Positions 3,846 through 8,451 of a DNA stretch of 8,451 nt are shown piece by piece (within the stretch, counting starts at the first letter, position 1; each line of letters begins with the position of its first letter). The position numbers and the translations under genes are program-made. The notes under the pieces were generated by a model. The model did not search any database. It was given only the letters and a program-made list of their open reading frames with translations, and was not told the DNA's origin. The stretch comes from a virus (Duplodnaviria; Heunggongvirae; Uroviricota; Caudoviricetes): positions 1 through 8,451 of the IMG/VR virus record IMGVR_UViG_2802429216_000005. One strand, 5' to 3'.

Positions 3846-4265
3846 TTAAGAGGCTTTTTGTTTTTTCTTTCGTGCTAACTCTTCGTAAATTGCATTGTAC
3901 TTTTGTTTTTTCTCCTCAAGAGTTTTTAAAAGTTCATCTGTCTCACTGTCAGGGAGCTCGTCCAGAAGATCAATGATGATTTTTTGTCTTGGATTTAACT
4001 CCTGATAGAAACGTACCTGTCCACTTTCTTCTGTATCCTCTCCCAAAAGATAGGTTGGTGTTGTTCCAATGAGTGTTGCTAATTCCCTTAATTTCTCTCG
4101 GCGAGGAATTGTTTCGCCATTAAACCATTTGCTAACCGCTTTTGGTGTTAATTTCATTCGACGGGCAATTTCTGCCTGCCTTCCATGTTGTTCATAACCA
4201 GCGTTTTCACAGGCTAGCGCAAGCCTACTGGCGAACTCTTTACGCGCTTTATCTTCATGAACCAT
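3846..4265 (-). CDS. Prophage repressor, XRE/cI-type HTH N-terminal domain, no S24 peptidase domain evident (RacR-like)
   Basis: ORF track, 139 aa; HTH segment MKLTPKAVSKWFNGETIPRREKLRELATLIGTTPTYLLG; C-terminal half is charged and coiled-coil-like (ELLKTLEEKKQKYNAIYEELARKKKQKAS). Divergent from the Cro-like gene across an 80-bp intergenic region with repeated operator-like motifs. Confidence 0.85.
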   Translation of the reverse strand: MVHEDKARKEFASRLALACENAGYEQHGRQAEIARRMKLTPKAVSKWFNGETIPRREKLRELATLIGTTPTYLLGEDTEESGQVRFYQELNPRQKIIIDLLDELPDSETDELLKTLEEKKQKYNAIYEELARKKKQKAS

Positions 4266-5044: not shown

Positions 5045-5992
5045 ATGAGCAGCAAGCTTCATGGTCTTGTCTGGGAAGGGTGTGCCTTCACCGGCATGAT
5101 CTTATCCAGGGTGGCAGTAATGGCTCGCCTTGCAGATTACAGCAATGACGAAGGTGTGTCATGGCCTGCAGTGGAGACCATTCGTCGTCAGATTGGGGCA
5201 AAGAGTGAATCAACGGTTAAAGCGGCGATAGCGGAACTGGAAAAGAACGGCTGGCTGACGAAGGAGGAACGTAAGGTCGGTGGGCGTAATGAAAGCAATA
5301 TCTACCGTCTTAATGTGGAAAAACTCGAAGCAGCAGCAGCGGCGGCGCGTGAGGCATATAAACCGAAAAGAAAAATTAACCCGGTAAAAAATGACCCGTC
5401 AAATATTGACCCCTCAACGGTTGACCCCTCAAATTTTGATGGATCAACCGTTGATAAAAAACATTCGGTTAGGGGGACGATGGTTGGCCCCGATCCGTCA
5501 GTATTAAAACCTGATCCGCCAGATAAAAGATCTTCTTGTCCGGACGCTTCGCAACCGGACCCGCAGATGGCTGAACAGGATTTTTTAACCCGACACCCTG
5601 ACGCGGTTGTGTTCAGTGCGAAAAAACGCCAGTGGGGCAGCCAGGAAGATTTAGCGTGTGCGCAGTGGATCTGGGGGCGAATCGTGAGTCTTTACGAGCA
5701 GGCTGCCAGCGATGATGGCGAAATCATGCGACCGAAAGAACCAAACTGGACTGCATGGGCCAATGATGTGCGCACAATGCGGATGCTGGATGGCAGAACT
5801 CACAGACAAATTTGCGAAATGTTTGGTCGGGTACAGCGGGATCCATTCTGGGTAAAAAACATCATGAGTCCGGCAAAACTCCGGGAAAAATGGGATGAGC
5901 TGGTTATTCGTCTGGGGCGTTCGCCTGTACAGCGTTGCGTGAATCACATTTCTGAACCGGATACCGAAATTCCGCCGGGGTTCAGGGGGTAA
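5045..5992 (+). CDS. Replication initiator, lambda O-like: N-terminal winged-helix DNA-binding domain, central iteron-encoded repeat linker, C-terminal domain of unknown fold
   Basis: ORF track, 315 aa; GGAG SD 7 nt upstream; N-terminal region with HTH-like segment (VSWPAVETIRRQIGAKSESTVKAAIAELEKNGWL); central 5-aa tandem repeat NDPSN-IDPST-VDPSN-FDGST-VDKKH encoded by 15-bp iterons; position after cro and the CII-like gene. Confidence 0.8.
   Translation: MSSKLHGLVWEGCAFTGMILSRVAVMARLADYSNDEGVSWPAVETIRRQIGAKSESTVKAAIAELEKNGWLTKEERKVGGRNESNIYRLNVEKLEAAAAAAREAYKPKRKINPVKNDPSNIDPSTVDPSNFDGSTVDKKHSVRGTMVGPDPSVLKPDPPDKRSSCPDASQPDPQMAEQDFLTRHPDAVVFSAKKRQWGSQEDLACAQWIWGRIVSLYEQAASDDGEIMRPKEPNWTAWANDVRTMRMLDGRTHRQICEMFGRVQRDPFWVKNIMSPAKLREKWDELVIRLGRSPVQRCVNHISEPDTEIPPGFRG
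5391..5465. repeat. Five tandem 15-bp iterons, candidate phage replication origin inside the initiator gene
   Basis: aTGACCCgTCAA (5391), TTGACCCCTCAA (5406), TTGACCCCTCAA (5421), TTGATGGATCAA (5436), TTGATAAAAAAC (5451), at exact 15-bp spacing; each unit has dyad ends TTGA....TCAA. Confidence 0.6.
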
Positions 5993-6034: not shown

Positions 6035-6436
6035 ATGGGGGCTATTTATACCGAAGAACAGCGGGAAAGATTACAGCGTCACATCGTTGACCTTGTACGT
6101 AAAAACGGGCGTATGAAAATGCCACAACTGGCATCGGCAACATATGCTTCACATGATTCCATTCGCCGGTACCTGAAGATGCTGGTGAGCCAGGGCGAAG
6201 TGTATGTTGTCAGCGGAAAAGGGGTATTCCTTTCAGAGAGAGTTTACCGTGAATGGCTGGCAAGTTCGGCAAAAAAATCAAGGGTTATCCGCAAACCAGC
6301 ACAAAAACAGGGTAAGGCCGGAGTACAACCCTACGACCGGCACCAGAACGTAATTTGCCGGGAATGTCGTAACAGCGAATCAATGCAGCGGGTACTGGCT
6401 TTTTACCGGGGTGGATTTCAGGAGCTCGTATCGTGA
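6035..6436 (+). CDS. Putative winged-helix DNA-binding protein (133 aa)
   Basis: ORF track; AGGAGA SD; basic middle region (KKSRVIRKPAQKQGKAG) and CxxC near C-terminus (CRECRN); stop overlaps the next start (GTGA). Confidence 0.7.
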   Translation: MGAIYTEEQRERLQRHIVDLVRKNGRMKMPQLASATYASHDSIRRYLKMLVSQGEVYVVSGKGVFLSERVYREWLASSAKKSRVIRKPAQKQGKAGVQPYDRHQNVICRECRNSESMQRVLAFYRGGFQELVS

Positions 6437-8072: not shown

Positions 8073-8451
8073 GTGACTGAATTAACCAAAGAGCAATTAA
8101 TCGAAGAAGCCAAATTAAAAATAGCGATTGCGAAATGCCACCCCAATTCAGGGATGGCACGGGTAGAGGGCGAGTTATTCAAAATTGCACTGGCATCGCT
8201 GGTAGCAGAACCGCTGGTGCCCGTCATGTATAAAGGAATGAAACTGTTAACAAAAGAGGGGCTTGAGCTTATTCGTGACGGTATTGCGGAGGCTACGGGA
8301 CTGGAAGCAATGTGTATGGCTGATGCTTTGCTGTCTGGGGGGGGGGGGGCGGGGGGGGGGGGGGGGGGGGGGTTGTTTTGGCAGGGGGCACCAGTGGAAG
8401 CTTGCAGCACAGAGTGGGAGAACGGAAGCGCGGGAAAACAATCACGCCCTG
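8073..8451 (+). CDS. Hypothetical protein, GTG start, 3' end beyond the window; reading frame passes through the homopolymer G tract, so the distal part is unreliable
   Basis: Frame open from GTG 8073 to the window end (VTELTKEQLIEEAKLKIAIAKCHPNSGMARVEGELFKIALASLVAEPLVPVMYKGMKLLTKEGLELIRDGIAEATGLEAMCMADALLS...). Absent from the ORF track because it has no stop in the window. The G-run translates to poly-Gly. Confidence 0.4.
   Translation, partial: MTELTKEQLIEEAKLKIAIAKCHPNSGMARVEGELFKIALASLVAEPLVPVMYKGMKLLTKEGLELIRDGIAEATGLEAMCMADALLSGGGGAGGGGGGGLFWQGAPVEACSTEWENGSAGKQSRP
8337..8372. repeat. Homopolymeric tract G13-C-G22
   Basis: Direct count: G x13 (8337-8349), C (8350), G x22 (8351-8372). 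Confidence 0.95.

Follow-up and report, generated by a model that had tools for sequence, protein, structure and literature searches.

The stretch of DNA analyzed here, hereafter the window, comprises the first 8,451 bp of the IMG/VR virus record IMGVR_UViG_2802429216_000005 (Caudoviricetes). It encodes a 315-residue O-like replication initiator, and within that gene lies an array of short dyad-symmetric repeats (iterons), which is the subject of this report. The array runs from 5391 to 5454 as ATGACCCGTCAA-ata-TTGACCCCTCAA-cgg-TTGACCCCTCAA-att-TTGATGGATCAA-ccg-TTGA, with the units starting exactly 15 bp apart. It is made up of four 12-mers of the form TTGA-N4-TCAA and a TTGA half-site that takes the fifth position and belongs to a TCAACCGTTGA dyad. 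All four positions of the plus-strand center of the fourth unit (TGGA) differ from CCCC, and because the reverse complement of the consensus fits this unit better, we read it as an inverted copy. This gives rise to a 20-nt inverted repeat (5414-5433/5435-5454), in which units 2 and 3 are matched by unit 4 and the half-site. A first-pass annotation, made from the sequence without database searches, had described five direct repeats at 15-bp spacing. The spacing stands, but there are four full units plus a half-site rather than five, and not all of them are direct.

The 15-bp period and the TTGA/TCAA ends are real features of this DNA. The motif TTGANNNNTCAA occurs three times in the window, always within the array, against an expectation of 0.32, and TCAANNNTTGA, the alternative (complementary) register, occurs four times, again always within the array, against 0.30. 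None of 200 dinucleotide-preserving shuffles reached these counts. Tandem Repeats Finder reported periods of 15 (3.2 copies) and 30 (2.1 copies), the latter scoring higher. The array occupies codons 116-137 of the 315-codon open reading frame (ORF), and its translation, NDPSN-IDPST-VDPSN-FDGST, agrees with the five-residue peptide repeat that had been pointed out in mid-gene.

The gene was rightly called O-like. Its product matched PHROG 391 ("replication initiation O-like") from end to end (E 1e-113), its sole Pfam match was HTH_36 (residues 25-71), and no NCBIfam model matched it. AlphaFold2, run on a 20-sequence alignment, gave a confident model of the N-terminal domain (residues 1-104), with helices and a beta wing. 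The nearest solved folds in a structure search with this domain were MarR/PadR/ArsR winged-helix regulators, at weak E-values (4e-3 or worse); only such generic regulators, and no solved initiator homolog, were among the matches. This winged-helix domain is presumed to be the reader of the iterons. BLASTP found no similarity between it and lambda O or phi80 gp15, and Pfam Phage_rep_O did not match. The C-terminal domain (about residues 177-290) is of the lambda O type, with 40% identity to lambda O over 112 residues (E 1e-25) and 36% identity to phi80 gp15 over 124 residues (E 2e-26) by BLASTP. Because AlphaFold2 models residues 109-169 at pLDDT <50, the linker between the two domains is probably disordered; residues 293-315 also fall below this value. 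Coordinates of the features are collected in the table.

Table. Features of the O-like initiator gene and of the repeat array within it (window coordinates)
Feature	Position	Strand	Basis or remark
O-like replication initiator gene, 315 aa	5045-5992	+	ORF; phrog_391; Pfam HTH_36; identical CDS in E. coli N96
N-terminal winged-helix DNA-binding domain, aa 1-104	5045-5356	+	AlphaFold2, HTH_36
Left A/T-rich stretch, 28% GC, alternative unwinding site	5356-5395		Gene's least stable 40-bp window (nearest-neighbor scan)
Whole block under synonymous constraint, proposed origin	~5375-5560		Codon diversity 0.157
Iteron 1, ATGACCCGTCAA	5391-5402	+	2 mismatches to TTGACCCCTCAA; in 15-bp register
Iteron 2, TTGACCCCTCAA	5406-5417	+	Exact match
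Iteron 3, TTGACCCCTCAA	5421-5432	+	Exact match
Iteron 4, TTGATGGATCAA, degenerate inverted copy (TTGAGGGGTCAA type)	5436-5447	-	2 mismatches on minus strand
Fifth position, left half-site TTGA alone	5451-5454	+	Belongs to TCAACCGTTGA dyad
Degenerate iteron-like pair, TTAGGGGGACGA-TGG-TTGGCCCCGATC	5469-5495		Cleaner palindrome TTAAGGGGTCAA-TGG-TTGACCCCGATC in Edwardsiella/Erwinia relatives
Two GATC 13-mers, CCCGATCCGTCAG and CCTGATCCGCCAG, 21 bp apart	5489-5522	+	Repeat family
Right A/T-rich stretch, 42 bp, 36% GC (gene 51%), candidate unwinding element	5498-5539		Stability scan
Right arm, AAAAGATCTTCTTGTCCGGACGCTTCGCAACCGGAC	5525-5560		Near-identical in relatives with other N-domains and in Shigella L006
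C-terminal lambda-O-type domain, aa 173-292	5561-5920	+	BLASTP to lambda O/phi80 gp15; confident helical AlphaFold2 model
Low-confidence tail ending ...EIPPGFRG	5921-5989	+	pLDDT <50

Conservation of the array was analyzed among homologs of the initiator, of which a protein search returned 924; a genome scan gave 79 loci from many Enterobacterales genera. An array with a 15-bp/5-residue period directly follows the winged helix in all 62 MARLAD-type loci and in the window, with 1-9 copies per array, four being the commonest number. The window conforms to the pattern of this type, which is a winged-helix N-domain, a TGA-N4-TCA array at 15 bp, and then GATCCGTCAGT. Close E. coli relatives vary by whole 5-residue/15-bp units, giving proteins of 305, 310, 315, and 320 residues, and 17 alleles with 4 or 5 units were present at 80 IMG/VR loci.

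The arrays come in two flavors. Flavor A, found in the window and in Edwardsiella, Erwinia, Mixta, and Morganella, reads T-T-G-A-(C4 or G4)-T/C-C-A-A. It mixes forward units, TTGACCCC[TC]CAA (encoding DPS or DPP), with their reverse complement, TTGAGGGGT[CT]AA (encoding EGS or EGL); 23 units were C-centered and 12 were G-centered, and the Morganella array has inverted copies throughout. The TTGAGGGGT[CT]AA units of relatives are clean counterparts of the degenerate iteron 4 of the window. Forward TTGACCCCTCAA encodes DPS and inverted TTGAGGGGTCAA encodes EGS, and the two are interchangeable in the arrays, which argues for selection on the DNA because the motif survives strand inversion and the peptide does not. 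Flavor B, found in SfII/SfIV-like Shigella loci, Klebsiella, Providencia, and others, reads C-T-G-A-C/T-N-C-N-T-C-A-A-A-A-T and forms purely direct repeats. Its arms are fixed and its center is variable: the variable positions make up the central codon, so that the encoded amino acid changes while the arms CTGA...TCAAAAT stay constant.

Synonymous sites gave a similar result. Sixty-three sequences representing many Enterobacterales genera were aligned by codon. Where the residue was conserved, codon diversity averaged 0.157 across codons 111-172, whereas the N-domain and the C-domain gave 0.58 and 0.56, respectively (Mann-Whitney p = 3.7e-16). The choice of codon depends on the place in the repeat rather than on the amino acid alone. 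Serine is encoded by TCT at unit position 1 and by TCA at position 4, and aspartate mostly by GAC in the iterons and by GAT at D150 and D157 (63/63 and 56/56 sequences). Between the window and Shigella L006, codons at same-residue columns were identical at 28 of 30 positions in the linker, versus 28 of 59 and 43 of 83 in the two domains. The arms of the iterons are more conserved than the spacers, and no ORF longer than 38 residues overlaps the constrained block in another frame. These comparisons of sequences point to constraint on a cis-acting DNA element rather than on a peptide repeat. The constrained block coincides with the low-confidence linker of the AlphaFold2 model (residues 109-169). 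The interval of 5391-5465 first given for the element is too small, as constraint at the DNA level spans ~5375-5560.

The type of repeat tracks the N-domain of the gene that contains it and not the neighboring genes, which vary widely. Loci with unrelated N-domains carried other repeats in the same linker: five copies of CATCGGGTCAAAATG ~22 bp apart in L008-L012, palindromes of the form GCCGCAAAC..TGCGG in L026, and four or five copies of CCGCAGAATCGCGGAAC (the CCGCAGAATCGCGG repeat type) in L034. All of these share with the window the C-domain and the right arm, TCT[CT]GTCCGGA[AC]GCTTCGCAACCGGAC. When 50,697 phage records were searched by megablast, matches to the window gene were confined to its C-terminal half; among sequenced phage isolates, none was >60% identical to the N-terminal half, and megablast returned no match to that half. 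Because the repeats change with the N-domain and only the C-terminal half matches phage records, the N-domain and its repeats form one specificity module that moves as a unit, with the right arm and C-domain forming a second. Such a split is the classical lambdoid origin design. The initiator genes of lambda, P22, and phage L each hold their own iterons (PMC8022706).

On its 3' side, the array is followed by an ordered set of further elements. The family consensus in this region reads ...TTT[TC][GC]ACCCGTCAGAATCTGGCGGGGATCCGTCAGTAAAtTCAAaaca-GATCCaTCAGATAAAAAAcctTCTTGTCCG... and consists of further iteron-like TGAYCCRTCAG sites, which are 21-24 bp apart, carry an invariant GATC, and are separated by A-rich spacers, and then of the right arm. 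The sequence GATCCGTCAGTA is nearly invariant across the family, and the GAT codons that form two of the GATC sites are invariant in 63/63 and 56/56 members. GATC (Dam) sites lie in the window at 5442, 5492, 5513, and 5529, that is, four in 90 bp directly 3' of the iterons. Conservation of these sites across the family suggests an involvement of Dam or SeqA at the putative origin. In L013, L018, and L021, the sequence AAAAGAT..TTCGTC.G.GAATTCTGGCGAATCC aligns with the lambda and phi80 origins at their A-rich region and palindromic right arm (TTCGTC.GAGAATTCTGGCGAATCC). The palindrome region TCGTCAGAGAATTCTGGCGAATCC of the right arm is present in these three loci, and the window and Shigella L006 carry a diverged TCTTGTCCGGACGCTTCGCAACCGGAC there.

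For an A/T-rich element beside the repeats, which had been named as a feature to look for, there is a candidate stretch on either side of the array; both are among the least stable of the gene, but they are short and modest. In the stability scan, the four 40-bp windows of lowest stability in the gene begin at 5356, 5287, 5427, and 5498, all within 5287-5537, and the first, third, and fourth of these flank or overlap the array. The right-hand stretch (5498-5539) matches the position of the A-rich region in the lambda and phi80 origins. For the left-hand stretch (5356-5395), conservation at the DNA level cannot be scored, as the amino acids vary there. DnaA boxes were not enriched in the window (22 versus 18.9 expected), with one relaxed match at 5314-5322, and a search for promoters and terminators gave nothing notable in or beside the array.

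Taken together, these results lead us to propose that a lambdoid prophage has its replication origin at ~5375-5560, inside the linker-coding part of its O-like gene, a reading to which we assign a probability of roughly 0.78. The earlier suggestion of a phage origin laid out as in lambda is thereby strengthened: position in the linker, synonymous constraint, inverted copies, co-variation of repeats with the N-domain, and alignment of the right arm in relatives are all consistent with it. We infer initiator binding, unwinding, helicase recruitment, and origin firing from sequence. The N-terminal winged-helix domain would bind the 12-bp dyads TTGA-N4-TCAA, probably as dimers, at four full sites spaced 15 bp apart (three forward and one inverted) and at weaker sites downstream. 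An O-some-like nucleoprotein complex would then build and destabilize an adjacent A/T-rich stretch, most likely 5498-5539 beside the conserved, GATC-bearing right arm, or alternatively 5356-5395. Finally, the lambda-O-type C-domain and the conserved ...IPxGFRG tail would bring in the host replicative helicase.

Several observations weigh against this proposal. The right-hand A/T-rich element, 44 bp past the last full iteron, is modest, with 42 bp at 36% GC, and much weaker than that of lambda, and the right arm of the window has diverged from the lambda/phi80 palindrome. At a spacing of 15 bp, neighboring sites face nearly opposite sides of the helix, in contrast to the ~21-bp phasing of lambda and phi80. 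The GATC cluster is marginal by itself (221 of 5000 random placements in the window reach its count, p about 0.04), and it carries weight because of its family-wide conservation and not through this statistic. Binding or replication experiments for the HTH_36 initiator family were not found in the searchable literature. The helicase-loading step is conjectural, as no loader is encoded, and this particular prophage may be defective.

The most serious competing explanation, which we nevertheless judge unlikely, is that the initiator or another phage protein binds the repeats for the purpose of regulation, and that the origin lies elsewhere. Autorepression, a transcriptional roadblock in the early right operon, handcuffing copy control, partition, or packaging would be candidate functions. 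Unwinding and initiation are read here from sequence only, plasmid iterons serve control as well as initiation, and a weak A/T-rich element would suit a site that binds protein and does not fire. A ParB-like gene follows the initiator directly in some relatives, but it is absent from the window. Regulation from elsewhere also fits poorly with the dependence of the repeat type on the N-domain of its own gene rather than on the varied neighbors, and the succession of array, A-rich stretch, and right arm in an O-type linker corresponds to the lambda and phi80 origins.

A recombination joint is considerably less probable. In this explanation, the block is a patch of homology that promotes exchange of N- and C-domains among lambdoid phages and is kept because mosaics joined there survive. 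The block does lie exactly at a module boundary, megablast to other phages matches the C-terminal half only, and the right arm is shared by genes with different N-domains. A homology patch, however, needs no 15-bp dyads, no inverted copies, and no N-domain-specific repeats, nor would it keep the iteron arms conserved above the spacers. A recombination role for the right arm probably coexists with origin function.

Two further explanations are very improbable. Constraint on the mRNA, which might control its stability or, by way of a structure or a pattern of codons, delay translation between the domains, would agree with the predicted RNA folding of 5375-5565 (z = -2.48), which is driven by a hairpin of the iteron palindrome. 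That hairpin, however, depends on the forward/inverted arrangement of this allele and is lacking in flavor B; strand-independent conservation of the motif indicates recognition of duplex DNA, no Rfam family matched at the array locus, and no compensatory base-pair changes that would keep a common RNA fold were seen across the family. A peptide repeat in a flexible linker, its DNA periodicity a by-product of recent tandem duplication with no function in cis, would suit a low-complexity, probably disordered linker of low AlphaFold2 confidence whose copy number varies by slippage, but not synonymous sites frozen across genera in which the flanking domains are saturated, inverted copies that keep the DNA motif and turn DPS into EGS, or flavor B arms that stay fixed while the amino acid of the central codon changes.

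If the block is the origin, as we propose, the means by which the helicase is loaded becomes of interest. Searches with phmmer using lambda P, gp14, DnaC, YdaV, DnaB, and DnaT found nothing in the window. Among the scanned loci (L001-L079), the last ~10 residues of the O-like initiator predict whether a loader gene is present. Fifty-two loci encode a tail of the window type, ...IPxGFRG, and 50 of these have no P, DnaC, or DnaB homolog within ~2.5 kb. Tails ending in ...HWNSPEAWENTL or ...TDWIxG (the WNSPEAW and TDW tails) occur at 12 loci, all 12 of which have a lambda-P-like loader gene. A third tail, W..IW, was present at 13 loci (Providencia, Yersinia, and Buttiauxella), and no partner was detected for it. 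No loader gene is annotated beside the initiator of SfIV.

As phage P, DnaC, and DnaB genes are absent, we conjecture that the C-domain and tail recruit host DnaB or DnaB-DnaC directly. According to a 2025 study (PMC12315714), LLS and 34 of 314 lambdoid phages encode an O homolog only, without a helicase or loader, and replication of these O-only phages was described there as "not yet understood." A wider proposal, which we advance tentatively and consider possible but short of even odds, is that the window holds an origin of this O-only class. The 12-bp dyads, set 15 bp apart and in either orientation, would be recognized by a winged-helix initiator in a geometry unlike that of the lambda O-some, the IPxGFRG tail would replace P by engaging host DnaB-DnaC or DnaB, and the tail motif would be a switch that predicts the need for a loader.

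The initiator gene is preceded by a cI-like repressor gene (3846-4265, minus strand), a Cro/YdaS-like helix-turn-helix (HTH) gene, and a gene of the YdaT/CII type, and on its downstream side it is followed by a DUF977/Ren-like gene, a further HTH gene, and an Ead/Ea22 gene. The DUF977 ("Ren-like exclusion protein") gene (6035-6436) directly follows the initiator, in the slot that ren occupies after P in lambda, and the gene order of the window resembles an O-P-ren module from which P alone is absent. The minus strand encodes a DicF antisense small RNA (2080-2131), for which Rfam RF00039 scored 77 bits and so exceeded its gathering score. The initiator of the window is 100% identical to a coding sequence in a prophage of E. 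coli N96, and dicB and ydfB are annotated in the equivalent region of this closely related prophage. DicF in the window and dicB/ydfB in the N96 prophage suggest that the host element is a Qin/dicB-type lambdoid prophage rather than Rac. The comparison with Rac-like phages that had been recommended holds only for the YdaS/YdaT-like neighbors upstream and fails for the initiator gene itself, since YdaU of Rac is a DUF1376 protein.

The initiator gene is widespread. Of 5426 complete E. coli genomes, 3053 had a match to it, which covered >=80% of its length in 1515, and at least 596 IMG/VR viral contigs matched as well. Initiators of the same family occur in the viable phages SfII, SfIV, LLS, phiNP, and YeP1; SfII and SfIV are serotype-converting Shigella phages. 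In the phage records checked for initiator homologs, no origin or binding-site feature was annotated under a match. Four scanned loci (L009, L012, L045, and L073) are enterobacterial prophage sequences in records labeled Bacillota bacterium MAG (metagenome-assembled genome), Veillonella parvula MAG, Vagococcus sp., and Chryseobacterium sp., and these labels probably reflect contamination or mis-binning. The O-like gene of L009/L012 has a C-terminal tail identical to that of the window. Near the end of the window is a 36-base G run interrupted by a single C (8337-8372). The best complete E. coli genome, OkiPb01695, is 100% identical to the window until 8346, and nothing matches beyond; an artifact of sequencing or assembly at the contig end, or else a private insertion, may account for the G tract and the last ~80 bases.

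Iterons within a lambdoid O gene are a known, textbook principle. No description of an HTH_36 initiator combined with mixed-orientation 12-bp dyads at 15 bp and no loader was found in the searchable literature. Searches with the motif strings returned unrelated primers, and searches for iterons together with O protein or SfII/SfIV returned lambda-type work only. A paper on the origin of the Stx phage "P27" concerns lambda-type iterons and not the HTH_36 family, and PMC6118388 concerns iterons of IncX1 plasmids. A link to Rac and oriJ was also set aside: YdaU of strain K-12 (DUF1376) belongs to a different initiator family, and the oriJ papers found were uninformative.

The analysis narrows the putative origin to ~190 bp and ties a tail motif to the absence of a loader, for a class whose replication was called not yet understood in 2025 (PMC12315714). 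It also describes a natural case of dual coding, in which an array of binding sites would dictate the amino acids of a disordered linker. Such a case is useful for annotation and cautions against reading similar sequences as "peptide repeats."

Lambda is among the closest known systems. Like the proposed origin of the window, that of lambda is contained in the initiator gene, where it falls in the linker-coding segment between the N- and C-domains and comprises several dyad-symmetric initiator sites. Behind these sites, lambda has an A-rich stretch and a conserved right arm, to which a weaker A/T-rich stretch and a diverged right arm correspond in the window. The C-domains are homologous, whereas the N-domain of lambda O belongs to another Pfam family. 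The four annotated lambda iterons are 18 bp long and start 20-24 bp apart, in contrast to the 12-bp dyads at 15 bp and in mixed orientation of the window; repeat length and sequence thus differ from lambda, as had been noted, and from phi80 as well. Lambda iterons are usually given as ~19-20 bp. The window iterons (GACCCCTCAAAT, 5391-5417) and the lambda iterons (ATCCCTCAAAACGAGGGA, L084 435-519) share CCCTCAAA, although the N-domains have no detectable similarity, and the shared sequence may be a coincidence or a trace of common ancestry. Lambda O ends in ...NTDWIYGVDL and is accompanied by a P gene, whereas the window initiator ends in ...IPPGFRG and has no P gene. Phage phi80 has four annotated gp15-binding sites at the equivalent linker position inside gene 15, and its downstream sequence CAGTATTAAAAGATCTTCGTCC resembles CAGTATTAAAA...GATAAAAGATCTTCTTGTCC of the window. 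The phi80 sites are, however, ~21 bp apart and differ in sequence, the N-domain is also different, and a P-like loader, gp14, is encoded.

Gene 18 of P22 and of phage L carries distinct repeats of its own, four of ~20 bp in P22 and six of 11 bp in L (PMC8022706), and therefore provides a precedent for short, non-lambda iterons in O-like genes. These phages have other repeats and other initiator families and pair them with a DnaB-type helicase, gp12, that is absent from the window. LLS has an initiator 51% identical over the N-terminal half and a one-gene module like that of the window. The window has flavor A iterons (TTGACCCCTCAA), and the passages of PMC12315714 retrieved by a term search name no origin. 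In Rac, YdaU (DUF1376) is followed by the DnaC-like YdaV, whereas the window combines HTH_36 with a lambda-O C-domain and encodes no YdaV homolog. In iteron plasmids (RepA, pi, and TrfA), a winged-helix initiator binds tandem repeats beside an A/T-rich unwinding element. Those repeats are usually 17-22 bp, direct, and outside rep, and the Rep proteins are of the WH1-WH2, Rep_3 type, to which the window initiator had no Pfam match; the repeats of the window are inside the gene. What sets the proposed origin apart from the textbook case of an origin within O is its winged-helix family, the 15-bp packing of 12-bp dyads that may point either way, and the absence of a loader.

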